From NCBI GenBank assembly GCA_002720935.1, contig PBIV01000054.1:1-48784 (forward strand): 48,784 nt of DNA, given 5' to 3'. This document shows, one piece after another, positions 1,898 through 18,490 of this stretch (positions within the stretch are counted from its first letter, which is position 1; every line of letters starts with the position of its first letter). The notes beneath the pieces were generated by a model. It was given only the letters and a program-made list of their open reading frames with translations. It did no database searches and was not told the origin of the DNA. Source of the DNA: Rickettsiales bacterium (GTDB lineage Bacteria; Pseudomonadota; Alphaproteobacteria; Micavibrionales; GCA-2720935). The translations under genes and the position numbers were made by a program.

Positions 1898-1910
1898 AAA
1901 AATTGTTTTG

Positions 1911-2047
1911 CGAGATATCAATACCGCGCTCGTACAATATATCTTCAAAGTTTCGCAAACTTAGCGGATAACGTACGTAATATTGTACAGCTAATTTAAT
2001 GATTTCAGTGCTAGTTTTGAAATATTTGAAGTGTTTTTTTTGCTCAT
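1911..2047 (-). pseudogene. IS6-family transposase, N-terminal remnant (about 45 codons), frameshifted at an A8 run
   Basis: The minus strand reads HFKYFKTSTEIIKLAVQYYVRYPLSLRNFEDILYERGIDIS. This parallels the IS26 Tnp N-terminus HFQRDIILWAVRWYCKYGISYRELQEMLAERGVNVD. The ATG at 2045-2047 is out of frame across the homopolymer at 2034-2041, and similarity stops where the kinase 3' end begins. Confidence 0.65.
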
Positions 2048-2488
2048 AATTGAGAATATTATGTATAAATTACCAAAACAATGAATGATTCATCCAGCAA
2101 TATTTCTCAAGCTTTAAAAGAAAGTGGGGAGAGGATTGTAGAGCATTTGTCAGAGGCAGGTAAAGCCGTTTCAGGTGAAATTACAGATACTGTAGGGAAT
2201 ATGTCTCGTTCGGTTACACGGTTTACGGTATTCCTTGTCTGAACCGTTTGAACTCTGTCGAAATTGTACCTTCATTCATATTAAAGGGTATAATGTATTG
2301 ATGTAAAATGAATATGGCTAGTTTGAATTTAAAAAATACCCCCAAACGTACCCCCGATAATTAATTAATGTGTTTAACTATAACGGGCTTGCATAAAATA
2401 TACATAACACCAACAGTATTTAACATATGCACAATTCTAATGCTTGATAAACTTTACAAAATCTCTTTATAAGTGTGTTTCTAGCGGG

Positions 2489-2704
2489 TCAAAAACCGAC
2501 CTGGAAATTAATCCTTAAAGCCTTAGATATTTTTATAACATTCTTCAAGGTAATAGAAGTTTTGCCACTTTCTAATAATGAAATCGTTGAGCGATGAACA
2601 CCAGCTAGTTCCGCTAATTTTTCATGTGAAAGTCCTTGCTTTAATCTCTCTTCCTTAACCTTTTTTACAATGTCTTGTATTTTTTGATCTACTTCATTCA
2701 TCAA
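2489..2704 (-). CDS. XRE-family helix-turn-helix transcriptional regulator (likely start ATG 2699-2701)
   Basis: 71 aa with the typical HTH_3 pattern LKQGLSHEKLAELAGVHRSTISLLESGKTSITLKNVIKISKAL. It is divergent from the glycosyltransferase gene, with operators between them. Confidence 0.85.
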   Translation of the reverse strand: MMNEVDQKIQDIVKKVKEERLKQGLSHEKLAELAGVHRSTISLLESGKTSITLKNVIKISKALRINFQVGF

Positions 2705-2721
2705 AAATGATTGTTACCTTA

Positions 2722-2750
2722 TTGACAGATCAAAGATACGTGAATATATT
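2722..2750 (+). promoter_or_regulatory. sigma70-type promoter for the glycosyltransferase/acyltransferase pair
   Basis: TTGACA (2722-2727), 17-nt spacer, TATATT (2745-2750). The -10 lies inside the first palindromic operator. Confidence 0.6.
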
Positions 2751-2776
2751 CACATAAAATACGTGAATATATTCAC
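2740..2776. promoter_or_regulatory. two tandem perfect 14-bp palindromic operators, GTGAATATATTCAC
   Basis: Identical palindromes at 2740-2753 and 2763-2776, 23 bp centre to centre. They sit within a 19-bp direct repeat ATACGTGAATATATTCACA, between the divergent XRE and glycosyltransferase genes. Confidence 0.75.
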
Positions 2777-2789
2777 AGGAATGTAAACC

Positions 2790-3788
2790 ATGTCAAAAGA
2801 AAAGAAAGTACTTATTTTTGCCCCAGATAGTCCGCACACAAAAAAATTTATAAATATGATAGATGGAATATTAGATTATCAATTAATTCTTCAACAGAAT
2901 GATCTAAATTTAGACTATGGCAATAAAACAAGTCGTATAAAAAATAAAAGTATTCAATCATTATTCCAAATAATGAAAAGTCTTTGGTTTAGCCCGTTTA
3001 AATATGATGTAGTACATCTTCATTTTATCAATTTTACAGCTTTCATCGTTTCTTTATTATCAATAAAACCTATCATTGTAACCGCTTGGGGGTCAGATGT
3101 ATTAGTGGTGCCTGAAAAAAAACTGTTATACAGAATGATGATAAAGTTCGTCTTATGGCGTTCAGAAATCATAACAGCAAATAGCTCTCAAACCATGAGA
3201 GTAGCAATTAACATTCTCGCGCCAAAACGTAAAGTTAACAAAGTCCATTTTGGTATCAACCAATACTGTAAAAAAACACCCCATCAAGAAAAAGAGAATC
3301 TAATTTATTCTCCACGAAATCATGCCCCACTTTACAACATAGAAAAGGTAATCCATTCTTTTGAAGAGTTTTATAAAAACAACCCCAGCTGGAAGCTTGT
3401 TATTTCAGGAAGGGAAGACCCAACAAAAACCCCACAATTAAAAAAAATGGCGCAAGGTCTCCCCATTGAGTTTACAGGGTGGATAACAGAAGAAGAGCAC
3501 GCCTTATGGTTATCAAAAGCTAAAATCGTTGTTTCAATCCCATCAAGTGACGCCCTATCTGTAACACTTATGGAGGCAATATATTCAAATTGTGTTTGTT
3601 TTGTATCCGACCTTAATTCAAATAAGGAAGTTATTACAGAAGGCATGAATGGATTCATATCAACTCAATTCGACCTGCATGAGAAAATAGATATTAAAAT
3701 GATGGAAAAATTAAATGAAAAAATTTCAGAGACGTGGACGTTTGAATACCAAAAAAAATCATTCCTTAAAATTTATAAAATAATATAG
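2790..3788 (+). CDS. glycosyltransferase, GT-B fold family 1/4 type (polysaccharide or LPS modification)
   Basis: 332 aa. N-half motif ITAWGSDVLVVPEKK and C-half EAIYSNCVCFVSDLNSNKEVITEGMNGF, the E-x7-E-like GT1 region. Confidence 0.75.
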   Translation: MSKEKKVLIFAPDSPHTKKFINMIDGILDYQLILQQNDLNLDYGNKTSRIKNKSIQSLFQIMKSLWFSPFKYDVVHLHFINFTAFIVSLLSIKPIIVTAWGSDVLVVPEKKLLYRMMIKFVLWRSEIITANSSQTMRVAINILAPKRKVNKVHFGINQYCKKTPHQEKENLIYSPRNHAPLYNIEKVIHSFEEFYKNNPSWKLVISGREDPTKTPQLKKMAQGLPIEFTGWITEEEHALWLSKAKIVVSIPSSDALSVTLMEAIYSNCVCFVSDLNSNKEVITEGMNGFISTQFDLHEKIDIKMMEKLNEKISETWTFEYQKKSFLKIYKII

Positions 3789-4787
3789 ATGAACGCATAT
3801 TTTATTCCAAAGATGAAATATAAAATCATAAACAATATCCAATTATTAAGAGCGTTAGCCGCAATTAACGTTATTATTTTTCATACAATTGGAACTTCTA
3901 CACTATATGATTTAGATACTAATTTCTTAAGCTACTTTGAAGGCTGGGGTAAAAATGGGGTTGATCTATTTTTCGTTATATCAGGGTTTGTCATTTACCA
4001 TAGCCATCAAAATAAAAAATTAGAATTTAAGGAGTTTATAAAAGCACGTTTCATAAGAATCATACCTGCCTATTATATTTTAACTACGGTTTTTGTTTTA
4101 TTAGTCTTAATTCTACCGAGCTTATTTAAATCCTTCTCTTTAGGTGCTGACCATTTAGTGAGCTCATATCTTTTCGTTTCAAATTTATTTTTAGACAAAA
4201 ACCCAGTCTTGTATCTTGGGTGGACATTAGAATGGGAAATATTCTTCTATTTCCTTTTTGCATTTTCAATTTTCTTAAAAAATGAAAATTTAAAGATTTT
4301 CTTCTTAATAACAACTATCTTTTTAGCAACCATAATATTCAGCTCTAGCCTTATAGGGTTGGAATTTATTTTAGGAATTCTAATTGCTAAAATTTACCAT
4401 ACTGATATCAAAGTAAAGAATCCTCAATTATTACTTATCGTAGGTCTAATCCTGTTAAGCGCATCAATATTCGTTAACCTAAATATTGACCGTTTTTTTA
4501 CTTGGGGTATTCCATGCTCTTTAATTGTCTGTGCTTGCCTATACATAAAACAAACGAGCAATAAATTACTTATATACTTAGGTAACGCTTCGTACAGTAT
4601 TTATCTAATACAAGTATTCACTATACCTGCATTTTACAAAATAGTCCTCATGACAAAATTACCAATTACAAACGACATACTAGCCTTTTTTTGTATCGTT
4701 GGAACTGTTGTAGTTGGATCTACATTTTACATTTTAATAGAAAAGCCATCTCATACTTATTTTAAAGGATTACTGAGGAGGAAATAA
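3789..4787 (+). CDS. acyltransferase family 3 (OafA/YrhL-like integral-membrane O-acyltransferase)
   Basis: 332 aa with about 10 hydrophobic helices. N-terminal signature NNIQLLRALAAINVIIFH and GVDLFFVISGFVI. The ATG directly abuts the glycosyltransferase stop. Confidence 0.85.
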   Translation: MNAYFIPKMKYKIINNIQLLRALAAINVIIFHTIGTSTLYDLDTNFLSYFEGWGKNGVDLFFVISGFVIYHSHQNKKLEFKEFIKARFIRIIPAYYILTTVFVLLVLILPSLFKSFSLGADHLVSSYLFVSNLFLDKNPVLYLGWTLEWEIFFYFLFAFSIFLKNENLKIFFLITTIFLATIIFSSSLIGLEFILGILIAKIYHTDIKVKNPQLLLIVGLILLSASIFVNLNIDRFFTWGIPCSLIVCACLYIKQTSNKLLIYLGNASYSIYLIQVFTIPAFYKIVLMTKLPITNDILAFFCIVGTVVVGSTFYILIEKPSHTYFKGLLRRK

Positions 4788-4872
4788 ATTGAAACAAAAA
4801 ATAAAAACCTTTTTACAAAACAGAAAAACGGCTGTAGGTATTTTCTTTGCTTCGCTAATAATCAATAAATCA

Positions 4873-4986: not shown

Positions 4987-6945
4987 TTAATTTAACTTTT
5001 TTTTTAATAACTTAGTTCTTTCGCTAGGCATAAATAATACTCTATTAGCCAACAAGCCTTCAGGATACTTATGTATTCCGGTTGTTAAGATAACTTGACA
5101 TTTTTTATCTTTAATCTTTTCAAACTCTTCAAGGCATTTAATAAGATTTTGATGTTCTATTCCATTAGCTTGTGGAGTATCTATAAGGAGAAAGCGAGGG
5201 AATGGAATATTTGTGTTATCTATAGATAGTTTCAAGAGGGTTAAAAAGTACATCAGTCTAACCTGTACATTTGCGCTATGCTCTCTATATTCTCCCTCAT
5301 TGATTTGTGGCATGTAATCATCAATGCTTATTCTAGCATGACTACAGCTTTGTAAAGTATTTTTCATTAGCAGGTTATATATAGTATTAAAGTCTTTGAT
5401 CTTAGACTTTATATCATCCTGTGCTTGCAGCTCTTTCTTAATTTTTTCACTCTCTAAGTCTGTAACTTTACATTTGGCATTGCTGTATTTTTCTTGATAG
5501 CTTTCATATTTGCTTTCTATCTCAAGAATATTATGTAGATCAGCTATTTCTTGGCGGACTTTTAGAATTTCATCATCTATGTCATTTATTGTTTCTAAAT
5601 CAATTGTTTCATCTATTCTAAACAAATATTTTTTGAGGTTTTCTTTATAAATTGTACTTGTTTCTTTTAATGAAATGATTTTGTTTTGTGTTTTAAGTAT
5701 TTCGGAATTACAATCATTGATAGCGATTTGCACAGTTTTGTAACTTTTGATTTTTGATTTTAAAATATCGTTATATTCCTCTTGAGTGTAAAAAAATCTT
5801 TCATACCTTTCTTCCTCGATCTTGCTTCCACAAACACAATGATTTTTCGGGCGTTCAACTTTTGTTAGACAATAAGGGCAAGTGTCTGGCGTAAATAGCC
5901 CTAATTGATTATGTGTAAAAATCACTTTCATTATTTGTTCAATAGAAGCGATTGTTTCTTCTTCAATTTCTTTGATTTTTTTTCTTTCCGAATAAAGACT
6001 CATAATACGGCTACTCTCATCCGATAGTTCTATTTCAGCGTCGGATAATTTTCTTTTGGCCTCTTGTATGTTTTGCTCTAGATATGAGTCTTTATGCCTA
6101 TTTTGTTTGAAAGTCTTTCTGTGTGAATGTAGTCTTTCTAATTGTTTTTCTAATTCTTCGACCTCTTTTTGCAAAAAGATACTATTCTTTTTTTCTCTTT
6201 CTCCGCGAATTTTTATTGCTAGATTTGAATACTCATCTAATAAACTCTTTGTTAAATTTTTGTTTTTTTCTGCTAATTTTAAGTTAGAAATTGTTTTATA
6301 TAATTCGTTAAATTTCTCACCAATTAGAAGTTCAAAAACGGCTTTTCTTAAGTCTTTTGAGTCGTTTACAAAATTACGCTTTTCGTCGGGCTTTTTGTAT
6401 ATCTCATTCGCGTCCGTTGGTTGGTCATAATACATTAATCTCATTAAATCTGTAAAATTGATCATAAAGCTTCGATAACCACAGTGCACTTCAACAGGTT
6501 CTATTTTAAGTTTTTGCAATATCCAGTCTGAAAAAGTATTTTTGTTGTCAGGGCTACGATTTATGCTTAGAGACAGATCTTTTTCTTCATCAGGTAAAAT
6601 TGTTAGTTCAATTTTTCCGTTATCATTTATTTGCTCAGTAAATGAGCTTACTAAAATATTATTGTTAGCAAAAAAACGCCTTATTAGATAGGGCTCTTCT
6701 GATAGGTAAATGTATAAATCAACATAATTATTTGTGTCTCCCGCAATTTCTTTTTGGTATTCTTCTGAGCCAGAATTAAATTTTTCTACTTTTCCCCCAA
6801 AAGCAAAATAAATTAAATCGCAGAGTGTTGTTTTTCCAGTTCCATTAAAGCCCTCTATTAAAACAATACCGTCTTTTAGAAGTGGCGATTCAAAGAAGTA
6901 ATTATCTCCAGAATATATAATTTTTCTTATTTTTAAATTTTCCAC
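4987..6945 (-). CDS. lmuB: SMC/Rad50-like ABC ATPase with long coiled coil and CxxC zinc hook (Lamassu LmuB-like / ABC-3C ATPase)
   Basis: Walker A GFNGTGKTT (aa 32-40). A heptad-rich region of about 330 aa. CPYC-x10-CVC at aa 356-372. C-terminal Walker B/D-loop RFLLIDTPQANG and H-loop-like ILTTGIH. Confidence 0.75.
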   Translation of the reverse strand: MENLKIRKIIYSGDNYFFESPLLKDGIVLIEGFNGTGKTTLCDLIYFAFGGKVEKFNSGSEEYQKEIAGDTNNYVDLYIYLSEEPYLIRRFFANNNILVSSFTEQINDNGKIELTILPDEEKDLSLSINRSPDNKNTFSDWILQKLKIEPVEVHCGYRSFMINFTDLMRLMYYDQPTDANEIYKKPDEKRNFVNDSKDLRKAVFELLIGEKFNELYKTISNLKLAEKNKNLTKSLLDEYSNLAIKIRGEREKKNSIFLQKEVEELEKQLERLHSHRKTFKQNRHKDSYLEQNIQEAKRKLSDAEIELSDESSRIMSLYSERKKIKEIEEETIASIEQIMKVIFTHNQLGLFTPDTCPYCLTKVERPKNHCVCGSKIEEERYERFFYTQEEYNDILKSKIKSYKTVQIAINDCNSEILKTQNKIISLKETSTIYKENLKKYLFRIDETIDLETINDIDDEILKVRQEIADLHNILEIESKYESYQEKYSNAKCKVTDLESEKIKKELQAQDDIKSKIKDFNTIYNLLMKNTLQSCSHARISIDDYMPQINEGEYREHSANVQVRLMYFLTLLKLSIDNTNIPFPRFLLIDTPQANGIEHQNLIKCLEEFEKIKDKKCQVILTTGIHKYPEGLLANRVLFMPSERTKLLKKKLN

Positions 6946-7478
6946 AGGTTAAGGCCTCTATCCTCATATAGATTTTCTAGAAAAGTATCTAAATTGATTA
7001 TACTAAGCCTTTTTAAGCTTTTTTTTATCTGTTTAGCATTTGAGTATTCAGCTTTAAACATGTTTTTGTTATTAATAAACTCTTCAATGTTTTTTTTATT
7101 TAAACTAACGTCTATACTCTGTTGCTTGCTATTCTTTTTTAAATTGATAATAGATCTTTTTTCCATAGAGAAAAGTAATTTTAGTATAGCGCTGCGCCTT
7201 GATAAACCTCTAGTGTAGCTCTCGAATAGAATATTCTTATCGTAAGAACTTAATATTTTATCTTCACTATAATTAATGATTCTAGCTAATTTTTTGTTAA
7301 TGACAAACTCAATTAAAAATACCAATTTTCTGTAATCTTTAAAAAACTTTTCATCAACGCATTTCAGCGTTTGTAATAATATTAAAATTGAATAACAAAA
7401 GAGATAGAAGTCATCTCCGGATAAATACATTAATCTTTTTTTTGCATTGATATTAAATGTCATTTTGATCCTCATCAA
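6933..7478 (-). CDS. lmuC: small helical middle component (LmuC-like / ABC-3C middle component)
   Basis: About 176-181 aa with no enzymatic motif. It overlaps both neighbours (13 nt with the ATPase start, 11-26 nt with the nuclease stop), indicating translational coupling. The call rests on position and size. Confidence 0.5.
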   Translation of the reverse strand: MMRIKMTFNINAKKRLMYLSGDDFYLFCYSILILLQTLKCVDEKFFKDYRKLVFLIEFVINKKLARIINYSEDKILSSYDKNILFESYTRGLSRRSAILKLLFSMEKRSIINLKKNSKQQSIDVSLNKKNIEEFINNKNMFKAEYSNAKQIKKSLKRLSIINLDTFLENLYEDRGLNLWKI

Positions 7479-8673
7479 AAGATAAAAAACAGCCGTCGAA
7501 TAAATCTAATATTAGGCCTTCAACAGTTATAGAATTTGAGGAACTGTAATTATAGTCCTGTTTTAGTTTTTGAATGTTTGCACAAGAAAGTTGTTCCATT
7601 TCTTTTAGGGCATTATTGATATTCTCATCTTGTGTGAAATCGATTTTTTGTTGTGATAAAAAATCTAAGCATGATTCATAGGTCCTGTATTTTAATGACA
7701 ACATGCTTTTATCATTTTCTTTTTGCTCAGCTCTTGAGGTAACTACTTTTCTAGCGAAGTAACCTAATCTTTTAGTACTAAAATCAGGCTTAACCGAATA
7801 TATTTTTTCTTCTACGTTTCTTTTGTCATTTATCTCGATACTTTCGAGTTCTTGCCAAGTGGGATCGTTTTTTTGTGATGGGCTTTCAGATTCTACTCTA
7901 ATGAAAATTGACTTAATTTCGGATGAGTGTAATAGTTTGTTTACAAATCCTTCTTTATTTTGCTTTTGCTCAAGATTCTCCATTATTTGGCTAAATATTA
8001 GTTCCTCTTTATTGTGGTGATTGCATGTGAAAAATTTAGAGTTTCTAATTTTTTCTAATACACGCTCTTTTAAATTTTCTTCATTTTGTTCGCCAAACTT
8101 CCAAGAAATGCAACTCAAAAAGTTCTGAAAAGATTCTAAGCTCATTTCCTCTAGGTCTGAAAGGAAACCCGTTGTTTTTTTGCTTTTATATTGTTTTTTA
8201 TACTCATCAATAAGGCATTTTTTTATAATTATCAGTATCTCATCATTTACTTTTTTGTCTCTTGTCAATATTTCAAGGATAGGTTCGTCGGGCAGGTCTG
8301 GATATTCTGTTCTTTTATTTTCTTTCGCCACTCCCGCAGTTGTATAAAAACAAAAATTAGTAGCATTATAATCTTGTTGACATTGCCCTAAATAAATATC
8401 GAAAAACGCTACAAGCGTGTTTTTAACTTGTCTTGAAAAAAGAGAAAAATTCACCCGATCGTTGTAATTTTTGTTTTCTTCATAGTGATTACACTTTTCT
8501 GATGTTAGATTGTCCTGTTGAAAAGTATCTTCAAACATTTCAACGCCTGTATAAAAACAATGCTCATCTTTAATCGATAATTTATCAAAAATTAGATCTA
8601 CAGCTCTTATTCTCTGAAGACGAAATCCTTTTGTTTTATCTGAAGCTTCTCGATTGATATATTCCATTTCCAA
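7453..8673 (-). CDS. lmuA: effector with an N-terminal Cap4/DUF4297-type PD-(D/E)xK nuclease domain (LmuA-like)
   Basis: The N-terminus reads KGFRLQRIRAVDLIF ... GVEMFEDT ... YEENKNY. This matches the GFxYQ ... E-x-x-D ... E/Q-x-K layout of DUF4297 nucleases. It is the first gene of the three-gene operon. Confidence 0.6.
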   Translation of the reverse strand: MEMEYINREASDKTKGFRLQRIRAVDLIFDKLSIKDEHCFYTGVEMFEDTFQQDNLTSEKCNHYEENKNYNDRVNFSLFSRQVKNTLVAFFDIYLGQCQQDYNATNFCFYTTAGVAKENKRTEYPDLPDEPILEILTRDKKVNDEILIIIKKCLIDEYKKQYKSKKTTGFLSDLEEMSLESFQNFLSCISWKFGEQNEENLKERVLEKIRNSKFFTCNHHNKEELIFSQIMENLEQKQNKEGFVNKLLHSSEIKSIFIRVESESPSQKNDPTWQELESIEINDKRNVEEKIYSVKPDFSTKRLGYFARKVVTSRAEQKENDKSMLSLKYRTYESCLDFLSQQKIDFTQDENINNALKEMEQLSCANIQKLKQDYNYSSSNSITVEGLILDLFDGCFLSFDEDQNDI

Positions 8674-9326: not shown

Positions 9327-9341
9327 ATGAGTTTGTTTATT
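9327..9341. repeat. 15-bp direct repeat ATGAGTTTGTTTATT, copy 1
   Basis: Identical to 10217-10231. It overlaps the stop codon of the 207-aa gene. Confidence 0.6.
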
Positions 9342-9960
9342 TGCCCTTAGTTTCTTGATTTAGTTTTTCCAGCCTTTGTTCTATTTTGTATATAAGATCA
9401 TTATATGTGAGCCGAAATTCATTTTCTTTAAATTTCCATTCTGCGTTGAGAGACAAATCTTTTTTCGCTAGTTCTACTAAGGTTTTACTTTGTTCTGCAC
9501 TTTTTTTCTGAAGTTCCTTCTTCTTTGCAATTAATAGATGCTTATTATCACAGTGTTCTAGAATAAAACTAAGTTCCCTTGTCATTATTTGGTAGCAGTC
9601 ATGGAGAACGTGCAATGATGACCATTGTGAAATATATTTTAGTAGGCATAAACCTGTAAAAAGTGAAAATAATGATGCTATAAATATACTAAAGTAACTA
9701 TGATAACCATTATTTGATACTCCACCCCATTCGTATGGCAGAATAGACAGTATTCCTAAGCCGCCATGATAAAAGACTATTAACAACGTTAATGAGGCAA
9801 TTATAGTTACTAATCTGTTTGGCAAAGACATTAAACTAGTACTTCTAAGTCTATAAAATAAATTATCATTTGGAGAAAAGCGTAACAAGCCAGCTATAAA
9901 TGATAGACTTAAAAGCATACATAATGCCAACATCAAAATTAACGTTTTTATAATAATCAT
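9337..9960 (-). CDS. membrane protein of unknown function: about four N-terminal TM helices plus a charged C-terminal coiled coil
   Basis: Hydrophobic segments IIIKTLILMLALCMLLSLSFIAGLL, LVTIIASLTLLIVFYHGGLGILSIL and YFSIFIASLFSLFTGLCLL. The C-terminus reads KKKELQKKSAEQSKTLVELAKKDLSL...IEQRLEKLNQ. RBS GGGAGAAG lies 6 nt before the ATG. Confidence 0.7.
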   Translation of the reverse strand: MIIIKTLILMLALCMLLSLSFIAGLLRFSPNDNLFYRLRSTSLMSLPNRLVTIIASLTLLIVFYHGGLGILSILPYEWGGVSNNGYHSYFSIFIASLFSLFTGLCLLKYISQWSSLHVLHDCYQIMTRELSFILEHCDNKHLLIAKKKELQKKSAEQSKTLVELAKKDLSLNAEWKFKENEFRLTYNDLIYKIEQRLEKLNQETKGK

Positions 9961-10215
9961 AAATTCTTCTCCCTAAACAAAATCACCAGAAGCTACGTCT
10001 CTTCTGGTGACCGGGAGTTGATAAATCGCCAATAGTCGATCGCGAGGGCCTTTAGGCATAAGCCCTGAACATACGCCAACGCCTCCCGGACATAAGCCGA
10101 GAAGCGATACGTTTCGGACGCATCAATCCGCTATTGGTAAGGGTTATCAAGCCCCAGCCTTCTCAATAGAGAATAGCTATAAAGAGTTTTACAATAATAG
10201 GAGTAAATAGCAAGC
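9961..10215 (-). ncRNA. GC-rich structured leader or ncRNA of unknown family
   Basis: No ORF. By hand count about 55% G+C over 10011-10130, against about 30% in the adjacent coding DNA. Helices: 10011-10017/10083-10089 (7 bp); 10103-10112/10118-10132 (10 bp with a 5-nt bulge, one pair being G-U only on the minus strand); and the terminator hairpin. Confidence 0.45.
9975..10010 (-). terminator. intrinsic terminator or attenuator hairpin immediately upstream of the membrane-protein RBS
   Basis: A perfect 10-bp stem pairs 9983-9992 with 10001-10010 around an 8-nt loop. On the minus strand it is followed by UUUUGUUU (9975-9982), then GGGAGAAG and the ATG. Confidence 0.65.
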
Positions 10216-10216
10216 G

Positions 10217-10231
10217 ATGAGTTTGTTTATT
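10217..10231. repeat. 15-bp direct repeat ATGAGTTTGTTTATT, copy 2
   Basis: Identical to 9327-9341. It overlaps the stop codon of the 262-aa gene. Confidence 0.6.
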
Positions 10232-11018
10232 AGCTTTTTTTATCTCTATTAAACTGGCTAATACGGCAAGAGTCAGAGCAAAAACGTTTTCCTTTTCTGT
10301 ATGTATAATATTTGTTGCATTTAATATTCTGACATACATCCAATTTAATTCCGCGAGCGTTTGATTCCACTAATGTGGCTATTAGAGCGCTCTTTAAGTC
10401 TGCGGCCTCGAAAACAAGGGTGCGTAGATCTTTGTTAAAATGCATAGAAGTACCAATACGGAAACATGAATGTTTGGCGAGAATAGCTAGAAGTACTCTA
10501 GTCTTTTCCTGCTTAATAATGTTACTGCGCTCAACTGCATTATCTTTGTAATCTATAATCCGATTAGCGAGAGTTATAATGGGTGTTATTGCGTGGATCT
10601 CATTATCTTTAGGGAATTCTTTGTTTTTTATTTCTTCTAATGGGCCGTATTTTTTAACAAACTTAAGAATACCTTGTTCGTGCTTCTGATAGCCTTCATC
10701 TATTGGGATTCTAAGGAACTCAGATAAAATATTCATCCGCTCTGAAAAGGGTTTCTCAAAGAAATCATATGTTTCAGTGCAATCCTTATTCTTTTTATTG
10801 CTGGGCTTAAAAACTATTTTTGCGTAAGGGTAGTAATCAATCTCATCGAAGTTATTGATTTTGCTACATCCATTATAGTCTATGTCTAGCAAATACTTTT
10901 TTTGATCAGGGGTGGCTTTTTGCCCGCGTTCAATTTTTAAATGCCCTATAAAACGATTTGCAGTAAAGCGTATCGTATTTTCTTTATCAAATATTTTATA
11001 TAACTCTGAATAGCTCAT
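10230..11018 (-). CDS. hypothetical protein with a C-terminal CGNR-like Cys4 zinc ribbon
   Basis: 262 aa. The C-terminus LDVCQNIKCNKYYTYRKGKRFCSDSCRISQFNRDKK has C-x4-C ... C-x3-C plus a basic tail, as in zf-CGNR domains. I do not recognise the N-terminal 220 aa. Confidence 0.6.
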   Translation of the reverse strand: MSYSELYKIFDKENTIRFTANRFIGHLKIERGQKATPDQKKYLLDIDYNGCSKINNFDEIDYYPYAKIVFKPSNKKNKDCTETYDFFEKPFSERMNILSEFLRIPIDEGYQKHEQGILKFVKKYGPLEEIKNKEFPKDNEIHAITPIITLANRIIDYKDNAVERSNIIKQEKTRVLLAILAKHSCFRIGTSMHFNKDLRTLVFEAADLKSALIATLVESNARGIKLDVCQNIKCNKYYTYRKGKRFCSDSCRISQFNRDKKS

Positions 11019-11152: not shown

Positions 11153-11335
11153 ATGAAAAATAGAATTTTAAGATTAAAAGAGGTTATGGATTTGGTGGGG
11201 TTATCAAGAAGTACTATTTATTTGAAAATGAAATTAGGTGAGTTTCCAAAATCCATTGAAATAAGTCAGCGATGCATTGGTTGGACCCAGAGCAGTATTG
11301 AAGAATGGATTGAAGATAAAATTAAGAAATCCTAG
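11153..11335 (+). CDS. alpA: AlpA-family phage/island transcriptional regulator (excisionase-like HTH)
   Basis: 60 aa. LRLKEVMDLVGLSRSTIYLKMKLGEFPKSIEISQRCIGWTQSSIEEWI is the canonical AlpA/Phage_AlpA pattern. Confidence 0.9.
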   Translation: MKNRILRLKEVMDLVGLSRSTIYLKMKLGEFPKSIEISQRCIGWTQSSIEEWIEDKIKKS

Positions 11336-11357
11336 GAAGTTATAGGATATTTTTAAG

Positions 11358-11927
11358 ATGGATTCAGCTAAAGAAATATATGGGGCTGTTGCTTTACAGA
11401 AATTATGTAGATTAGTAGCCATGGACACAAGGATTAAGCCGGCTGCAAAGCGCGTTTTTTTGACGATGTTAAGTTATGCCAATATTAAGACACTATCTTG
11501 TTATCCTGTTCAGCAAACCATTGGAGATGATTATGGGATTAGCAGGCAAGCTGTTGGGCAGGCCATAAAGCAGTTAGTGAGAAATGGCTACATTATTAAA
11601 AAAACGTCTATTTCTAAAACTGGAACAGACAACACATATTATTTTAATATATATCTAGTTCAAGTATGTGGTTTGTGGAACTACAAGGTGAAAGCTCCAG
11701 AGCTTGCGACGGTATGCAATCTTAAAGACTTTACAGGGTGGAAACTTCCAAGTGTTTCAGGGGGTGCAAGCTCTAAAGGTTTCACTAAAAATAAAAGTTA
11801 TAATAAAAAAAATAAAACAGATCTCTTAAAAGATAAAAATGTTTTGCTTGGCAAGGAGGAGAAGGTTGATGTTTCTGTGCCCAAAGATCAAAACTCAGAC
11901 AAATATTATAGTATGTGGGGGGGGTAA
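11358..11927 (+). CDS. winged-helix DNA-binding protein typical of islands and satellites (HTH_36-like); probably the 5' part of a gene split at a G8 run
   Basis: AAKRVFLTMLSYANIKTLSCYPVQQTIGDDYGISRQAVGQAIKQLVRNGYIIKK. The ORF ends just after GGGGGGGG (11917-11924). Confidence 0.65.
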   Translation: MDSAKEIYGAVALQKLCRLVAMDTRIKPAAKRVFLTMLSYANIKTLSCYPVQQTIGDDYGISRQAVGQAIKQLVRNGYIIKKTSISKTGTDNTYYFNIYLVQVCGLWNYKVKAPELATVCNLKDFTGWKLPSVSGGASSKGFTKNKSYNKKNKTDLLKDKNVLLGKEEKVDVSVPKDQNSDKYYSMWGG

Positions 11928-12287: not shown

Positions 12288-12872
12288 GTGGGCTTAGAGA
12301 CATTTATTGAACTTAATCGAACTTTTGTAAAGTACTCGCAAGATGATGCTCAAGATGCGTCTGGAGATAGTATAGAGCATAGCGATGCCCTTGGTCTTAA
12401 AGTAATTGATGATTTAAGCTGGGATGATTTGTTTGAGAAGCGCCGTGTAGTAATATTAGCCCCGGCAGGTGCAGGTAAAACCTCAGAAATTCGTAAAGCC
12501 GCTATCAAACTGAGATCAAAAGGAAAGTCAGCTTTTTTTTTAAGGATAGAGCATTTATCGGATAATTTAGATGGTGCATTTGAGGAAGGTGATGTATCGG
12601 AATTTGAAGAGTGGTTAAAAGGTAATGATGAGGGTTGGATTTTCTTAGACTCTATCGATGAGGCTAGATTGAAATCCCCCTATTGTTTTGAAGAAGCTGT
12701 TAGGAAAATTGCAACTACGCTGAAGCCTAAAAAACAAAGCGTTCATATTATAATGACTAGTCGTATCGAAGCTTGGAGACGTAAAACAGATTTGGATTTA
12801 TGCAACAAACAATTTGAATATATTTTACCACAAGAAAAAATCGCTCAAATTGGAGATAGAACAATTTCATAG
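12288..12872 (+). CDS. STAND/NACHT-like P-loop NTPase, N-terminal part, ending at an in-frame TAG
   Basis: Walker A VVILAPAGAGKTSE and Walker B GWIFLDSIDEARL. The TAG at 12870-12872 is in the same frame as the next ORF. Confidence 0.75.
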   Translation: MGLETFIELNRTFVKYSQDDAQDASGDSIEHSDALGLKVIDDLSWDDLFEKRRVVILAPAGAGKTSEIRKAAIKLRSKGKSAFFLRIEHLSDNLDGAFEEGDVSEFEEWLKGNDEGWIFLDSIDEARLKSPYCFEEAVRKIATTLKPKKQSVHIIMTSRIEAWRRKTDLDLCNKQFEYILPQEKIAQIGDRTIS

Positions 12873-13025
12873 GATTCTATTGTCTATGATCGCAATCAAA
12901 CAAAAGAAGAAACACAAAATAAAGACATAAAAGGTACATTTGAGATATATTTTATCCGTGATTTAAATGAGAGCCAAATTGAAACCTTTGCTCGGAAACG
13001 AGTTGAGTCCAATGTTTCTGGTTTC

Positions 13026-16000
13026 TTGAACGATATAAATAGACAAGATACAGGAGTTCATACCGCTAGACCTCAGGGCTTAATCGATCTTATATGGTAT
13101 TGGGAAAAGTATGGATGTATAGGATCTCCGCTTGAGCTTATGAGGAAAAGCGTTGAAAGAAGATTGGTAGAACGTCGTCCAAATACTGAAATTGTAAGTA
13201 ATATTTCAAAAAATAAAGTTCGAGAAGGGCTTAAGCTTATAGCCGCAGCTTGTACTTTAATGAAAGAGGCTGTAATTGCCATACCTGATGAAGATAATAA
13301 TGTGGGTATTGATATTAGAAAGCTTTTATCTAACTGGAAACCAGATGAATGTAATACTGTTTTAGGGCGTCCTATATTTGGCGGTGCAATTTATGGTGCA
13401 GTACGATTGGATAGGCCAACAAGAGATTTTTTGACAGCGGAGTGGCTCAATGACTGTTTAAAACGAGGCGCACCTAGAAAGGATATAGAAAATTTATTTT
13501 TTCAAAAAACTTATGGTGTTAAAGTTTTAGTACCCTCGATGAGATCAGTCTTGTCTTGGCTAATGATATTCGATGAAGAAATTAGAGCGAAAGCATGTAA
13601 AATAGAACCAGAAATTATATTTGATAGTGGAGACCCAACTCAGTTTCCACTAGAGGTAAGGAGCAAAATACTTAAGAGTATATGTCGTAAAATTAGTTTA
13701 GATGCATCTCAGCGCTCAGTCACTGATTACGCTTCAATAGAGAGGTTTACGAGTCCGGATATGTCGAAAGACGTAAAAGTACTTTTAAAAAAATATAAAA
13801 ACAATACGGAGATCGTTTCCTTTTTAATGCGAATGATTTGGCGGGGAAAAATAATAGAAGCTTTGCCAGAGACAAAAATTTTAGCTCTAGATAGTCAAAA
13901 TGAGAAATATGCGAGAGTTTTGGCTATTAAGGCATTAAAAGAAATAGGCTCTAAAGAGGATTTTAAAGAGTTATTAGATTGCTTGAAGAATCAAGATAAA
14001 AAAATTGATAGAAGAATTTTAGCAGGTGTAATTGATGTTTTGGAGCCTACACAAAATTCGATAGATTGGGTTTTTGATGCTTTAGCCAAAGTTAAAGAGA
14101 AGGAAAAGTATACTACCGAAGGTCTGACCTATTCTTTAGTAAGTTTTGTAGAGCGGCTTGATTTAAAACTGATGCATGGTTTTATAAATAGATGCTGTTT
14201 ACTCTTAGATAAAAAACCTTTTATTCAAAAAAGAGGTTGTGAGGTTTCAAAACGTTTTGGTTGGTTAATAAACTGTGCAGGCAAAGCTATAGAAAGATTG
14301 TTACTGGTTCGTCATAAAGATGCTTTGATGCCTGAAAGTCTTGATATAATTTATAAAATTTCATCATTTACGAAATATGAATATTTTCAGATCAGATCAT
14401 TAACTAAAAAACTTCCAGAAATAGCGGATGATTGGTCTGATTTGAACTTTGCATTGTTTTGGAAAGATGTGGAAGAAACGAGGAAGAATTTTTCCAATGA
14501 CTTAGATGATAGAATAACAGATTTTTCTAGAGTCTATGGTCTTCGAGAATATTGGAATTTTGGTTTGGAAGATTTTGAGAATATTAAGAACGAGATAATC
14601 AATCGAAGTTTTTTGGATGATAAGCTTGTAGCTCTTACATTAGCTTTTCAAATATATGTTGAGAATAATAGGCCTAACAAATTGAAGGAGGAACTTAACG
14701 AAATTGTTTTTGGAGTATCTGAGTTGGAAGAACTTTTGTCAACTATGCTTAAACCGCCTCCGCAATCGAACCAACAAAAGAAATTTAAAAAAGAAGAACA
14801 AAGATGGCAACTAGAAAATAAGAAGCGTGAAGATGATCTAAATAAATATCACGCTGATTGGTTAATTTGGCTAAAAGAAAATGTGGAGTTACTTAAAGAT
14901 GAGAATCGAATTTCTGTTACTCTTAGTAATGGTGGTGTTTTAGGTGCTCATAAATATCTCCTGGAGAGAATGCGTCATTATAGTGCTGATAATATGAAAT
15001 GGACGCAAGGAAATTGGGAAGATTTGAAAGGTGTTTATGGTGTTGATATTGCTACAGCTTTTCGTGATGGACTCGTAATGTCATGGAGACACTATAAGCC
15101 AGATTTTCCTTCTGAAAGGAATTGCCACGATAGAATTCCTCTAGCTGTAATTGTGGGGCTTTCGGGTCTGGAAATTGATTCTAAAGAAAATAAAAATTGG
15201 GCAAACGGTCTTAGTGAAGGCGATGTTGAGCTAGCTTGTCGTTATGCTTTTTATGAATTAAATGGATTTCCAGCATGGTTTGCTCGACTTCATAAAGTTT
15301 TTCCAGATTTAGTTAATGATTATATTATGAAAGAGATAGATTGGGAGCTAGGACTTGTTCAGGAAGGAAAAGAGAAACACTATCTTATTGATAAGTTGAG
15401 CTGGGGTAATGAAAATTTATGGGATAGTTGTGCCCCCCTTATTCTTGAGCGCCTTGAGAAAGAGCCTGCTAGTGTAAAAAAATTAGGTTATTTATTAAAA
15501 ATAATACAATGGTCTAGAACTATTTCGGATAGAGAGATAGCTTCTTTGGCATCAAAGAAATGTGATGAAATTGAAAATTTGGATCATCTTTCATATTGGT
15601 TTGCTACATGGATTGGAGTAGAGCCGGAAAAAGCAATTCAAAGATTTTCAGAATATTTAAAGAAAGTAAAAAAAGACAAAACCTCTTTAAGTTTAGCCAT
15701 GAGGGTAATTGTTAATTTGGTAGGAGATGAGTTCACAGATTTTCGTGCTCGAACAGCTTATCGTCAACCTAAGTATCTAAAGCTTTTGTACCTTCTAATG
15801 CATAAATATATTAAAGTTGAGGAAGATATAGATAGAATAGGGAAAGGTGCATACTCACCTCAATTAAGAGATAATGCACAAAATGCTAGAGAAAGTCTTT
15901 TTAATGTTTTGACCAATATTCAAGGAAAAGAATCTTATATTGCGTTGGTTGAGTTGGCAAAAAAACATCCTGTAAAAAAGCATCGTCCTTGGATGATGCG

Positions 16001-16382
16001 CGCAGCGAGGAAATGTGCTGAAAAAGACACAGATATTAAGGTTTGGAATTATGCAAATATACATAGACTTATTGATAGTTTTAAAGAGAAAGTGAGTTAT
16101 CAAATGAACTTCTGGGAAAAAATTTTAGGTTTTGGTTTTGGGGTTACATTTATAGTTGTTTTGTTAGTTATAGCGCTTTTTATTACTGACCCTACTGAAA
16201 CACAACATGCAACATTTAAAACTATCTTGGCATTATCTGCGGCAGGAATTGGCGGCATCTTTACTGGCTTTATTCATGTAGAAGGAAAAATTAACGAGTT
16301 TACTATCAGAGCTGGTGGCGCGTTAGCATTATTTGTGATTGTTTACTTTTTTCCTCCAGAAGCAATATCATTTATGAGATAA
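13026..16382 (+). CDS. STAND/NACHT-like NTPase, C-terminal part: helical-repeat body plus three C-terminal TM helices
   Basis: It shares the frame of 12288-12872, and the 51 codons between them (12873-13025) contain no stop. C-terminal hydrophobic helices: ILGFGFGVTFIVVLLVIALFI, ILALSAAGIGGIFTGFI, GGALALFVIVYFF. Confidence 0.75.
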   Translation: MNDINRQDTGVHTARPQGLIDLIWYWEKYGCIGSPLELMRKSVERRLVERRPNTEIVSNISKNKVREGLKLIAAACTLMKEAVIAIPDEDNNVGIDIRKLLSNWKPDECNTVLGRPIFGGAIYGAVRLDRPTRDFLTAEWLNDCLKRGAPRKDIENLFFQKTYGVKVLVPSMRSVLSWLMIFDEEIRAKACKIEPEIIFDSGDPTQFPLEVRSKILKSICRKISLDASQRSVTDYASIERFTSPDMSKDVKVLLKKYKNNTEIVSFLMRMIWRGKIIEALPETKILALDSQNEKYARVLAIKALKEIGSKEDFKELLDCLKNQDKKIDRRILAGVIDVLEPTQNSIDWVFDALAKVKEKEKYTTEGLTYSLVSFVERLDLKLMHGFINRCCLLLDKKPFIQKRGCEVSKRFGWLINCAGKAIERLLLVRHKDALMPESLDIIYKISSFTKYEYFQIRSLTKKLPEIADDWSDLNFALFWKDVEETRKNFSNDLDDRITDFSRVYGLREYWNFGLEDFENIKNEIINRSFLDDKLVALTLAFQIYVENNRPNKLKEELNEIVFGVSELEELLSTMLKPPPQSNQQKKFKKEEQRWQLENKKREDDLNKYHADWLIWLKENVELLKDENRISVTLSNGGVLGAHKYLLERMRHYSADNMKWTQGNWEDLKGVYGVDIATAFRDGLVMSWRHYKPDFPSERNCHDRIPLAVIVGLSGLEIDSKENKNWANGLSEGDVELACRYAFYELNGFPAWFARLHKVFPDLVNDYIMKEIDWELGLVQEGKEKHYLIDKLSWGNENLWDSCAPLILERLEKEPASVKKLGYLLKIIQWSRTISDREIASLASKKCDEIENLDHLSYWFATWIGVEPEKAIQRFSEYLKKVKKDKTSLSLAMRVIVNLVGDEFTDFRARTAYRQPKYLKLLYLLMHKYIKVEEDIDRIGKGAYSPQLRDNAQNARESLFNVLTNIQGKESYIALVELAKKHPVKKHRPWMMRAARKCAEKDTDIKVWNYANIHRLIDSFKEKVSYQMNFWEKILGFGFGVTFIVVLLVIALFITDPTETQHATFKTILALSAAGIGGIFTGFIHVEGKINEFTIRAGGALALFVIVYFFPPEAISFMR

Positions 16383-16432: not shown

Positions 16433-17617
16433 TTAGGCTTTTATGTTTTTAATATAATCTGCCCAGTCTTGCATCATTTTAGTTCGCTCTTGTAAAAAGT
16501 CTGCACGGTCATAGGCTCGGTCTATCTTATTTTTTGGTAAATGGGCGAGTTGACGGTCAATAACCTCATGGCGATAGCCCAATTCTTGTTTTATTGCCCC
16601 CATAGCAAGTGCTCTGAAGCCGTGGCCTGTCATTTTTCCTTGGTAGCCCATCAGTTTTAGCGCTTTAAGGATAGTGTTGTTACTAATTGAATTTTTTGGG
16701 CGAATAGGGCTCGCGAAGACATGTTCACGATTGCCTGAGATCAGTTGTTGTTTTTCAAATATTGATAAGGCCATATCAGATAGGGGGACAAGATGTTCTT
16801 TTTTCATCTTCATGCGCTCGGCAGGGATGGTCCAAAGCTTTTTGTCAAAGTCTATCTCTTCCCACTTCGCATTGATAAGTTCACTCGTCCTAACAAAGGT
16901 CAAGAGCATCAACCACATTGCGTTTTGTGTCGTGCCATAAAGGCGTGCGTCATTTGTTTGTAGCTTATGCAAGAATTCGGGCAGTTCTTCGACTTTAATC
17001 GATGCAAAATGGCCTGATTTAGAAGGTTTGAGGGCTTCTCTAATGTCTCTTGATGGATCTCTAACGCCTCGACCTGTTGCGATAGCGTAGCGAAAGATTT
17101 CGCCGCATTTTTGTAATTGACGTTTAGCGAGGTCAAATGCACCACGTTTTTCGATCTTGCGAATAACTTCTAATAGGGCAGGCGGTTCAATATCTTTGAT
17201 AGGCATTTTACCGATATAAGGAAAGATATCATCCTTGAGACGATCTAAGATTTGTCCAGCGTATCGATCTGACCAGCCGGTAAGTTTGTTTTCATGCCAC
17301 TCTAAAGCGATTGCTTCAAAGGTGTTCTCCAAATTATCGGCGGTGGCGAGCTTTTGTTCTCTTTTATGGCTTACGGGATCGATGTTATCGGCAATAAGGC
17401 GTTTGGCTTTAACTTTCTCTTCACGTGCTTCTAGGAGAGAAACAATAGGATAGGTACCGATTGTTAAAAGCTTTTCTTTGCCTAAAAAGCGATATTTTAA
17501 GCGCCATGATTTAACACCGGTCTTTTTTACAAGTAGGAATAAACCCTCTCCATCGAAGAGTTTATAATCTTTTTCTTTGGGCTTGGCGCTCTTAACTTGG
17601 ATGGCTGAAAGTTTCAT
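16433..17617 (-). CDS. int: P4/CP4-57-type tyrosine integrase
   Basis: N-terminal DUF4102-type arm-binding region LSAIQVKSAKPKEKDYKLFDGEGLFLLVKKTGVKSWRLKYRF. Catalytic region with HGFRA, LAHL and the tyrosine context RAYDRADF. Confidence 0.92.
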   Translation of the reverse strand: MKLSAIQVKSAKPKEKDYKLFDGEGLFLLVKKTGVKSWRLKYRFLGKEKLLTIGTYPIVSLLEAREEKVKAKRLIADNIDPVSHKREQKLATADNLENTFEAIALEWHENKLTGWSDRYAGQILDRLKDDIFPYIGKMPIKDIEPPALLEVIRKIEKRGAFDLAKRQLQKCGEIFRYAIATGRGVRDPSRDIREALKPSKSGHFASIKVEELPEFLHKLQTNDARLYGTTQNAMWLMLLTFVRTSELINAKWEEIDFDKKLWTIPAERMKMKKEHLVPLSDMALSIFEKQQLISGNREHVFASPIRPKNSISNNTILKALKLMGYQGKMTGHGFRALAMGAIKQELGYRHEVIDRQLAHLPKNKIDRAYDRADFLQERTKMMQDWADYIKNIKA

Positions 17618-17809: not shown

Positions 17810-18490
17810 TTAAACACGCCTTAAACCATTCACTAATAAGACCTTGCCAAGGATATCAAAATCAACGCCATCATCCATTTTGATGGTAAACGGTTCATAT
17901 ATGTTGTTATCACTAGATACTTTTATTGTTTTACCAGGTAGAAATTGCAATCGTTTAACCATTACTGCCTCTTCTAACCTTATTACAAAGACGCCATCGG
18001 CGGGAACTCTGTGCTGCACGTCGTAACTGCAAATAAGTATTTCCCCATGATTTAGGGTTGGCGCCATTGATTCTCCATCAACTTCCATACAGAACAAATG
18101 AGACGAGCTGATAAACCAAGTTTTTTGTAGATATTCTTTGTGGAATGCTAATAAAGAGGTGGATTTTTCTTCAGTAACAAGCTTTCCATCGCCAGCGCTG
18201 GCTTTCACATTAATTAATGGGACATGGACGAGGTGTTGAGGCTGATGCTTTTCTTTTTCCTCTATTTTCTCTATCTCGTCAATTATATCTGTTTTATCTT
18301 CCTCTCCAGCTGCTAGCCAGCCAATGCTAACATCGGTTGCTTTTGCAATTTGTTGTAACTTATTTAAGCCAGGAGTAGAGCCCTTTAAATAATTTCTTAT
18401 TAAAGATTCTGAGAGTCCGCATTTTTTAGCGAATGAATTTACTGATTCTTCTCCAATGAGGTGGGTCAATCTTTCTTTAAAGTCTTCCAT
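17810..18490 (-). CDS. phage repressor: XRE HTH plus S24 LexA-like peptidase domain
   Basis: N-terminus SVNSFAKKCGLSESLIRNYLKG. C-terminus GESMAPTLNHGEILIC and AVMVKRL (Ser/Lys dyad context). It is divergent from ner. Confidence 0.9.
   Translation of the reverse strand: MEDFKERLTHLIGEESVNSFAKKCGLSESLIRNYLKGSTPGLNKLQQIAKATDVSIGWLAAGEEDKTDIIDEIEKIEEKEKHQPQHLVHVPLINVKASAGDGKLVTEEKSTSLLAFHKEYLQKTWFISSSHLFCMEVDGESMAPTLNHGEILICSYDVQHRVPADGVFVIRLEEAVMVKRLQFLPGKTIKVSSDNNIYEPFTIKMDDGVDFDILGKVLLVNGLRRV

Follow-up and report, generated by a model that had tools for sequence, protein, structure and literature searches.

What does a G+C-rich spacer specify when it lies between two genes and holds no gene of its own? 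A spacer of this kind (positions 9961-10229) occurs in the 48,784-nt stretch of a Rickettsiales bacterium genome analysed here (contig PBIV01000054.1 of assembly GCA_002720935.1; hereafter, the window), flanked by two open reading frames (ORFs) on the minus strand, the downstream one encoding a predicted membrane protein. The original prediction, made from the letters alone, had pointed to its G+C content (about 55% against about 30%), to the lack of an ORF and to helices of a strand-specific RNA with a possible riboswitch or attenuator layout. We measured G+C contents of 0.55 (10000-10099) and 0.51 (10050-10149) versus about 0.3 in the flanks, and no ORF of 40 aa or longer lies inside the spacer; a 58-aa ORF (10163-10339, minus strand) touches its upstream edge, mostly within the upstream gene in a different frame. 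Here, we report that the minus strand of the spacer specifies a genuine and conserved structured RNA, in which covariation backs every helix. Its family is a leader-fused sister of sRNA-Xcc1, with a homologous core architecture and the recognition logic of the P4 seqA/CI and P1 c4 systems. The observation behind the original prediction was confirmed, and its interpretation was partly supported.

A widespread RNA family below the Rfam thresholds

The window has no match at the gathering score of any Rfam 15 family, and the original prediction had likewise recognised no RNA family. In a permissive Rfam scan, the sRNA-Xcc1 model (RF02221) matched the minus strand at 10001-10091 over its whole length (model positions 1-87) with 25.3 bits against a cut-off of 53, corresponding to E-values of 0.059 for an 801-nt region and 3.6 for the whole window. 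The alignment takes in the closing stem, hairpin 2 and the tail. A genuine Xcc1 RNA, that of E. coli O157:H7 EDL933, scores 69.1 bits with the Rfam model. Beyond Xcc1, the permissive scan of the whole window returned just one chance snoRNA match, and the C4, isrK and c4-a1b1 models gave no match at E-values up to 10 in 9700-10500.

Relatives could not be collected through the neighbouring proteins, as neither has homologues beyond identical copies and protein-anchored synteny is therefore impossible. The upstream 262-aa ORF has no Pfam match and found no relatives in the protein search, and the downstream 207-aa protein, hereafter the cargo, found one other entry with 100% identity and no Pfam or PADLOC match. 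The locus also occurs on contigs from marine (Tara) metagenomes; the RNA region is identical on the four other contigs that carry it and leaves no variation to use. BLAST of the spacer against phage and plasmid collections returned zero matches, and an exact 16-mer search of IMG/VR gave chance matches only, all without the 5' strand. We retrieved relatives with a structural DNA pattern on both closing-stem strands. This pattern recovered about 48 canonical Xcc1 RNAs from IMG/VR, and a variant pattern (CCGGGAGGCG...) recovered 44 distinct sequences clearly like the window RNA from JGI metagenomes. Their consensus runs from GGCCGGGAGGCG through the hairpin-1 stem, UAUGUCCA, a short capped stem, AAAG and the hairpin-1 return strand to hairpin 2 with a hypervariable loop, a variable junction, AACUCCCGGYC and ACCAG. 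None of the 15 relative loci scanned with Rfam reached any family threshold. On the window and these 15 loci, the RNA family, which is widespread and structurally well supported, stays below the Rfam 15 thresholds.

A more specific pattern was applied to contigs of one genome per species and gave at least 119 loci; the genome counts that follow are among the matches listed. The family is found in at least 100 species-level genomes. Carriers are mostly Alphaproteobacteria (Micavibrio, Rickettsiales, Rhodospirillales, Sneathiella, Hyphomicrobium, Tistlia), with others in Gammaproteobacteria, Chthoniobacteraceae (Verrucomicrobiota), Planctomycetota, Vampirovibrionales/Melainabacteria, Bdellovibrionales and Bacteroidota. 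Many carriers at these loci (L223-L341) are predatory or obligately associated, namely Micavibrio, Bdellovibrionales, Vampirovibrionales and Rickettsiales.

We built a covariance model of leader plus core (R2) from 41 metagenome members, with the window excluded. R2 matched the window on the minus strand at 10002-10168 with 123.3 bits (E-value of 5e-33, model positions 1-169), a mid-range score for the family. In the genome set, it made 104 matches in 100 loci, nearly all of them full length, with 67-170 bits. Canonical Xcc1 loci score 34-57 bits with R2, the EDL933 copy 24.5 bits, and P4 gave no match.

Covariation supports the fold and the strand

The alignment of the core (A3, 42 sequences) has 97.8% of its cells paired, with 16 of 26 pairs changed on both sides, and the alignment of leader and core from the genomes (A6, 103 sequences) has 97.6% paired, with 25 of 40 pairs changed on both sides. 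The covariation scores of these alignments, both of which are model-fitted, were 0.45 for A3 versus 0.20 when shuffled and 0.03-0.11 when slid, and 0.43 for A6 versus 0.20 and 0.06-0.15; none of 500 shuffles reached the observed covariation in either case. Most of the closing stem (CCGGGAGG...CUCCCGG) was preset in the retrieval patterns, and its covariation is therefore under-sampled: it is informative just at the second pair (GC 20, GU 13, AU 10, never A-C) and in two divergent copies. When RNAalifold was run on leader and core with no structure supplied, it returned a modular fold of an a1 hairpin, a leader hairpin and a tRNA-like core.

The helices read by eye in the original prediction have their counterparts in this fold. 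Its helix of 10011-10017 with 10083-10089 is present as the closing stem CCGGGAG/CUCCCGG, and its helix of 10103-10112 with 10118-10132, including the G-U pair, is the leader hairpin (10104-10131), which covaries in the relatives. The hairpin proposed at 9983-10010 before the ribosome-binding site (RBS) of the membrane-protein gene was recovered by the terminator scan as a 12-pair stem (10012-9981) with a U-rich tail, followed by AGGGAGAAG and an ATG. The covariation check proposed with these helices came out in favour of the leader hairpin and, where it is informative, of the closing stem. An 8-mer (CATAAGCC) that had been noted does recur at 10057-10064 and 10091-10098; it occurs 5 times in the window versus 1.5 expected, and 3 of 100 shuffles reach 5. 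We take it as a coincidence because of the three further copies in the window and the different sequences at both sites in the relatives.

Both strands show a folding signal, with z-scores of -4.46 for the minus and -3.52 for the plus strand. The minus strand was assigned on the basis of covariance-model matches on that strand only, many G-U pairs in the family, and the orientation of the promoter and terminator, which bears out the strand specificity claimed earlier. These observations also bear on an alternative at the DNA level, by which the spacer would be a recombination site, an attC-like integron site, an origin, or the decayed remnant of a tRNA or transfer-messenger RNA (tmRNA). The spacer is G+C-rich and palindromic and lies within a mobile island, and sRNA-Xcc1 was first found in integron cassettes, in Xanthomonas upstream of symE (bioRxiv 10.1101/2025.06.18.660453). 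However, the frequent G-U pairs would be A-C mismatches on the opposite strand, the promoter, terminator and Shine-Dalgarno (SD) sequence are ordered on one strand, the model matches one strand only, and ARAGORN found neither a tRNA nor a tmRNA. We consider a DNA-level element or a tRNA remnant hardly credible.

Each leader carries the complement of its own core

Every core is preceded by a leader of about 75 nt. From its 5' end, the leader comprises a 5' hairpin, a hairpin of the form GGGG-loop-CCCC whose loop is a segment termed a1, a single-stranded segment b1, a covarying hairpin, CGCUUCUCGG and a U-rich linker that closes with the U at -1. In the window, the leader segment UUGAUAA (a1) is complementary to the core junction UUAUCAA (a'), and the segment CCAAUAG (b1) is complementary to CUAUUGG in the loop of hairpin 2 (b'). 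These four segments are the most variable parts of the RNA, with 96 distinct b1 sequences among the 102 genome members listed, yet the complementarity is retained within each member. The duplex energy with the member's own leader averaged -32.8 kcal/mol versus -21.1 kcal/mol with another member's leader, and the own leader ranked first of 44 for 29 cores. Contiguous pairs had a median of 8 versus 4 for b1:b' and of 7 versus 4 for a1:a' when own and other leaders were compared, and b1:b' lies above the non-own 95th percentile in 91% of the genome members. As a1, b1, a' and b' are all unpaired in the covariation-supported fold, contact is possible within one molecule or between two.

The location of the complement was examined with exact 7-mers in own versus non-own flanks, a test that replaced two noisier ones (self-antisense matches, and G-U run lengths over long flanks). 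In the window family (n=41), a complement was found upstream in 95% of own versus 13% of non-own comparisons. In canonical Xcc1 (n=47), it was found both upstream (98% versus 27%) and downstream (89% versus 19%), by which Xcc1 looks like a cis-linked repressor of the gene that follows it. The upstream match in the window family comes without a downstream one (see below), indicating a seqA-like target and no RBS-proximal copy. This target and the core are fused, without an intervening terminator and spacer.

Co-resident copies in one genome mostly differ in b specificity. Tandem or multiple copies occur in some genomes (L249, 1500-1918; L262, 5361-5739; L275, 5810-6200; L104; L105, 1595-2086; L186, 3506-4028), sometimes with no ORF between them. 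In L249, the hairpin-2 loop of the downstream copy matches b1 of the upstream copy.

The core has ends of the tRNA type

A U at position -1 and a CCA-type tail are features preferred by bacterial RNase P, and c4 and CI are RNase P substrates; the processing of c4 by RNase P was reportedly described by Hartmann and colleagues in 1995. Among the genome members listed, 56 of 65 have U at -1 and 54 of 65 have A, G or U followed by CCA; the window RNA has U at -1, the last base of a U-rich linker after CGCUUCUCGG at the 3' end of the leader, and ACCA. The processing sites of the core are predicted; Xcc1 was mapped as an 88-nt RNA in Xanthomonas (PMC2996969). Xcc1, c4 and CI are all stable processed small RNAs (PMC2996969, PMC12197685).

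Leader and 3' hairpin compete for the closing stem

The leader is also complementary to both strands of the core closing stem. Its anti-P1 segment CGCUUCUCGG pairs with the 5' strand CCGGGAGGCG over 10 contiguous pairs in the window, and this pairing has a family median of 9 versus 5 for random segments (99th percentile, 9). At core position 2, A or G is met by U or C in the leader, and A never stands opposite C. The 5' segment CCGGGG of the leader pairs with the 3' strand CUCCCGG over 8 pairs in the window, with a family median of 7 versus 4. At the other end of the core, a 3' hairpin is found in nearly all of the 44 members and always begins GGYC-NCC; it is therefore in competition with the final four pairs of the closing stem, whose last bases read GGUC. 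In the window, the base of the 3' hairpin takes in these 4 nt as well as the ACCA tail. By eye, a U-run follows it in about half of the members, the window included; a script flagged 13 of 44.

A terminator-like hairpin right before an RBS, with mutually exclusive pairings around its base, fits the suggestion of a ligand-sensing riboswitch or a classic terminator/antiterminator attenuator for the membrane-protein gene. Alternative pairings do exist. The segment CUUCUCGG had been read as a possible antiterminator pairing with the 5' arm of the terminator; this pairing is not conserved, and the conserved partner is the closing-stem 5' strand CCGGGAGG, with 10 pairs in the window. The variable part of the terminator arm had 6-mer complements in its own leader and core hardly more often than in those of other members (0.30 own versus 0.24 non-own), a weak negative result since the positive control of this test failed. 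Ligand sensing found no support either: the positions that vary most are held in check by their leader partners and form no conserved ligand pocket, the downstream genes have no common function, no riboswitch model matched, and the nearest relatives are antisense immunity RNAs. A riboswitch or classic attenuator is very improbable.

An antisense RNA that may act on its own leader

We propose that the RNA of this family is processed, works as an antisense RNA on its own leader and in this way gates the expression of the cargo, a reading drawn from sequence comparison to which we give about an even chance. The core would first be excised as a stable small RNA, RNase P cutting after the U at -1 and tRNA-type trimming proceeding back to ACCA. 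The a1:a' and b1:b' contacts, either in one transcript or between a mature core and a new leader, would then decide the fold of the new transcript. Three folds could compete: the tRNA-like one, one in which the leader is locked onto both closing-stem strands, and one with CUCCC on the GGGAG of the SD sequence. The fold adopted would set both transcription past the 3' hairpin, with its predicted termination, and translation of the cargo. The outcome we infer is a self-specific, dose-dependent control of a horizontally acquired gene. When a1 and b1 were blocked in silico, CUCCC of the window RNA paired with the GGGAG of the SD sequence.

Several results weigh against this proposal. The 48.8-kb window contains no target site combining a and b (TTGATAA then CCAATAG) other than the leader, and the 7-mer test of the window family (n=41) found downstream complements in 10% of own versus 14% of non-own comparisons; with no second target near the cargo RBS, the well-understood RBS-blocking mechanism of c4 is not applicable. 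Nearest-neighbour folding of full-length transcripts, in pseudoknot-free energies, placed the leader-locked fold on average 11.9 kcal/mol below the tRNA-like fold and made it the winner in 42 of 44 members, which would hinder recognition by RNase P unless pseudoknotted or kinetic folds prevail. The change in mean SD accessibility upon blocking a1 and b1 (from 0.39 to 0.29 in 33 members) was modest and uneven across members. GGGAG makes up 54% of NGGAG sites before cargo genes versus 29% before other ORFs, a moderate enrichment in a comparison biased by start codons picked with an SD-like filter. The diversity of b could reflect neutral compensatory drift and not selection for specificity. In the window itself, the -10 hexamer is a poor match to the consensus and was not called by a generic promoter scan, and the pairing of this copy is interrupted by a U-U mismatch in the closing stem and at two places in hairpin 1, which could mean that the copy has partially decayed; both recognition pairs are intact.

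Some of these results would be expected of a purely cis-acting structured 5' untranslated region (UTR), in which the leader and core form ordinary helices or pseudoknots and the RNA serves as a stabiliser, a processing signal or a protein platform for the next gene. The predicted dominance of the leader-locked fold, the lack of a trans target in the window and of a downstream target in the family, and the occurrence of the unit in many unrelated genomic contexts all agree with this, as does the lack of a U-run after the 3' hairpin in about half of the members, which would then require co-transcription with the cargo. However, hairpin 2 and the closing stem covary strongly even though the leader-locked fold excludes both, and the four recognition segments are unpaired in the supported fold, a layout typical of fast antisense recognition. 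The conserved U at -1 and RCCA tail, the stable processed nature of the homologous RNAs cited above, and the different specificities of copies in the same genome also argue against it. We regard a purely cis-acting UTR as unlikely.

Alternatively, the RNA could be a trans-acting antisense RNA with targets elsewhere, in an infecting or helper phage or a related element, the leader being a decoy or a maturation aid and the cargo just co-transcribed. Immunity specificity sits in a' and b' in canonical Xcc1, c4 and CI, b is hypervariable in the window family, and the window copy lies in a defence-rich island beside a Mu-like prophage. The lack of a combined a and b site in the window besides the leader speaks against such targets, and the tight, conserved spacing from the RNA to the cargo SD argues for a link with the cargo. 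This possibility appears distinctly unlikely to us.

The family might even represent a distinct class of self-addressed RNA switches, tRNA-like small RNAs that, through two hypervariable recognition segments, would match their own leader only, sense their own dosage and gate horizontally acquired cargo such as defence genes, surface proteins and toxins without a protein regulator or an RBS-proximal target. Co-resident cassettes would be orthogonal through b, and the class would be spread over at least six bacterial lineages. We put this forward tentatively and with some doubt. The family raises the testable question of how an antisense RNA regulates through its own leader, and its naturally orthogonal loop and leader pairs could supply programmable riboregulators.

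The RNA, its cargo and the surrounding island

The unit runs in the order promoter, 5' hairpin, leader of about 75 nt, tRNA-like core of about 88 nt, 3' hairpin with U-run, SD sequence and cargo gene (Table 1). Members of the family share a promoter-like sequence (TTGAnn-N17-TAACGT), with its two boxes about 45 and 20 nt ahead of the model start.

Table 1. Positions of the predicted RNA elements and of neighbouring genes in the window
Feature	Position	Strand	Evidence or remark
Putative -35 box TTGCTA	10208-10213	minus	consensus position only; relatives have TTGAnn about 45 nt upstream of model start
Putative weak -10 box TAAAAC	10186-10191	minus	relatives have TAACGT/TANNNT at -18 to -22 from model start
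5' hairpin UUCUC-UAUU-GAGAA	10160-10173	minus	in minimum free energy fold; relatives have a hairpin there, sequence variable
a1 hairpin GGGG-CUUGAUAA-CCCU	10140-10155	minus	RNAalifold GGG/CCC stem; covaries in genome set
a1 loop UUGAUAA	10144-10150	minus	complement of core junction a'
b1 CCAAUAG	10131-10137	minus	complement of hairpin-2 loop
Leader hairpin	10104-10131	minus	7 of 7 pairs of main stem changed on both sides (103 genome sequences); also RNAalifold
Anti-P1 segment CGCUUCUCGG	10097-10106	minus	complementary to 5' strand of closing stem
tRNA-like core	10005-10091	minus	Xcc1 model 25.3 bits; R2 123.3 bits; covariation; conserved ends
Core closing stem CCGGGAG/CUCCCGG	10083-10091 with 10009-10017	minus	
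Core hairpin 1	10042-10082	minus	
Core hairpin 2	10024-10041	minus	loop b' ACUAUUGG at 10029-10036
Core junction a' UUAUCAA	10018-10024	minus	
Core tail ACCA	10005-10008	minus	
3' hairpin GGUCACCAGAAG / CUUCUGGUGAUU, then UUUUGUUU	9975-10012	minus	terminator scan: 12-pair stem 10012-9981, U-rich tail
Shine-Dalgarno region AGGGAGAAG	9966-9974	minus	ATG at 9960 next; GGGAG complementary to CUCCC of closing stem
Cargo gene, 207-aa predicted membrane protein, hydrophobic N-terminal segments	9337-9960	minus	ORF list
Upstream ORF, 262 aa	10230-11018	minus	
AlpA	11153-11335		
P4-type integrase	16433-17617	minus	adjoins Mu-like prophage
Mu-like prophage	from 17810		S24 repressor 17810-18490; Ner-like HTH_35 18703-19020; MuA transposase 19551-21740

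The cargo differs in every relative with no common kinship, and its identity therefore has no bearing on the nature of the RNA. Most cargo genes have no Pfam match, and many encode lipoprotein-like signal peptides; others encode Zn-ribbon, pilin-like, RHS or RTX proteins or Mrr, GmrSD or GIY-YIG nucleases, and PADLOC matches among them include UzuA (Uzume), PD-T4-3, PDC-S11 and PDC-S02. The upstream neighbours range from integrases, restriction-modification, TIR, AbiEii-like and reverse-transcriptase genes through to housekeeping genes, by which the unit of promoter, RNA and cargo appears self-contained. The module lies upstream of accessory genes, among which are known defence genes (Uzume, PD-T4-3, PDC-S11, Mrr, GmrSD-type nucleases), and may be a general expression-control cassette for mobile cargo.

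Host genes occupy positions 1-4800 of the window, followed by an island with the P4-type integrase, AlpA, an HTH_36 protein, a STAND NTPase and a Lamassu-like operon. The C terminus of the upstream 262-aa ORF is Cys-rich with a zinc-ribbon-like motif (C..C...C...C); this gene lies outside the conserved neighbourhood of the RNA family. AlpA and the HTH_36 protein together span 11153-11927. The Lamassu-like defence operon (4987-8673, minus strand) encodes a 652-aa protein that matches LmuB (PADLOC E-value of 5.6e-59), preceded by two orphan ORFs (181 aa and 406 aa) in the usual positions of LmuC and LmuA. The STAND-type NTPase gene (12288-16382, plus strand) has an in-frame stop at 12870-12872 in the window. 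In a Tara contig that is nearly identical over 10.8 kb (L001, 2 differences), this codon reads CAG and the gene product is 1364 aa long; the gene in the window may be either a pseudogene or a variant in sequence.

Comparison with known systems

Among the closest known systems, sRNA-Xcc1 shares with the window RNA the CCGGGAGG/CUCCCGG closing stem, an asymmetric internal loop in hairpin 1, variable sequences in the hairpin-2 loop and in the junction, and an NCC(A) tail, as well as upstream a1/b1 segments complementary to the junction and loop and a co-oriented gene directly downstream. In addition to falling short of the Xcc1 threshold, the window RNA and its 44 relatives differ from canonical Xcc1 in the internal loop of hairpin 1 (UAUGUYCA/AAAG versus AUACAAC/GAAGAAG). 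In canonical Xcc1, a1/b1 belongs to a transcript of its own, which lies upstream and has a terminator, and a2/b2 abuts the downstream SD as a second copy, whereas the window family has a1/b1 fused to the core and no a2/b2. Our literature search found no description of such a fused-target variant.

In EDL933, Xcc1 lies directly upstream of a phage antirepressor gene (ant), its hairpin-2 loop is complementary both to the ant RBS region and to the upstream copy, and its NCCA tail is the 5' arm of a pre-RBS hairpin, as in the window. Canonical Xcc1 loci (EDL933, L017 6540-6900; IMG/VR, L019-L097) show a P1 c4-like order of a1b1, a'b' and a2b2, with b2 abutting the SD. Besides prophages of E. coli O157, APSE phages carry Xcc1, there upstream of an ORF6N gene (bioRxiv 10.1101/2020.03.17.996009). 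Xcc1, mostly discussed as a trans-acting virulence sRNA, thus shows a P1-like layout around the gene just downstream.

The P4 system offers the same logic in two parts. In our scan of P4, the seqA region was matched by isrK (RF01394) and c4-a1b1 (RF03163), with a1 (GUGAGAA) in a hairpin loop followed by b1 (UUCACAGG), and the CI RNA (C4, RF01695; 74.9 bits) carries CCUGUGAA in the loop of hairpin 2 and AUUCUCAC in its junction. The window leader resembles seqA, with a1 in a hairpin loop and b1 single-stranded after it, and the window core resembles CI, with b' in the hairpin-2 loop, a' in the junction, a closing stem and a CCA end. A P4-type integrase and AlpA are likewise present in the window island. 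Unlike P4, in which replication genes are controlled, the window family precedes unrelated accessory genes. The isrK/c4-a1b1 RNAs have their own Rho-independent terminator after b1, whereas the window family has a covarying hairpin without a U-run that leads into the core. In P4, a terminator (t1) separates seqA from CI and a further target (seqC) lies downstream, as reportedly described by Briani and colleagues in 2000; the window family lacks both a terminator between leader and core and a second downstream target. According to the literature, isrK corresponds to seqA and C4 to CI, and in P4 a constitutive leader transcript is terminated early through the CI-seqA interaction and processed to CI, the downstream genes being expressed on read-through only (PMC3632133, PMC10111431).

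The c4 antisense RNA of P1/P7 is about 77 nt long after processing and carries two short recognition elements that set immunity specificity, and it is co-transcribed with the genes that it controls (PMC12197685, PMC2864571). It blocks the RBS of the ant operon (icd/ant) through the second target copy a2/b2 (PMC12197685), a site without a counterpart in the window. For the processing of c4 by RNase P, the window family carries the matching U at -1 and RCCA. The family extends the idea of c4/CI "immunity RNAs" well past enterobacterial phages, in a form with the target fused to the regulator and the RBS-proximal target missing.

In Salmonella Gifsy-1, one promoter gives rise either to the short IsrK RNA (STnc1160) or to a read-through mRNA with the same 5' sequence, and the short form switches the long one between alternative structures in trans, controlling translation of orf45 and anrP (PMC4825925). 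IsrK represents the a1/b1 (seqA) part only and ends at its own terminator, whereas the window family, known from sequence alone, continues into the core. Among experimental precedents for an RNA directed against its own transcript, as the window RNA may be, this action of IsrK on its read-through mRNA comes closest.

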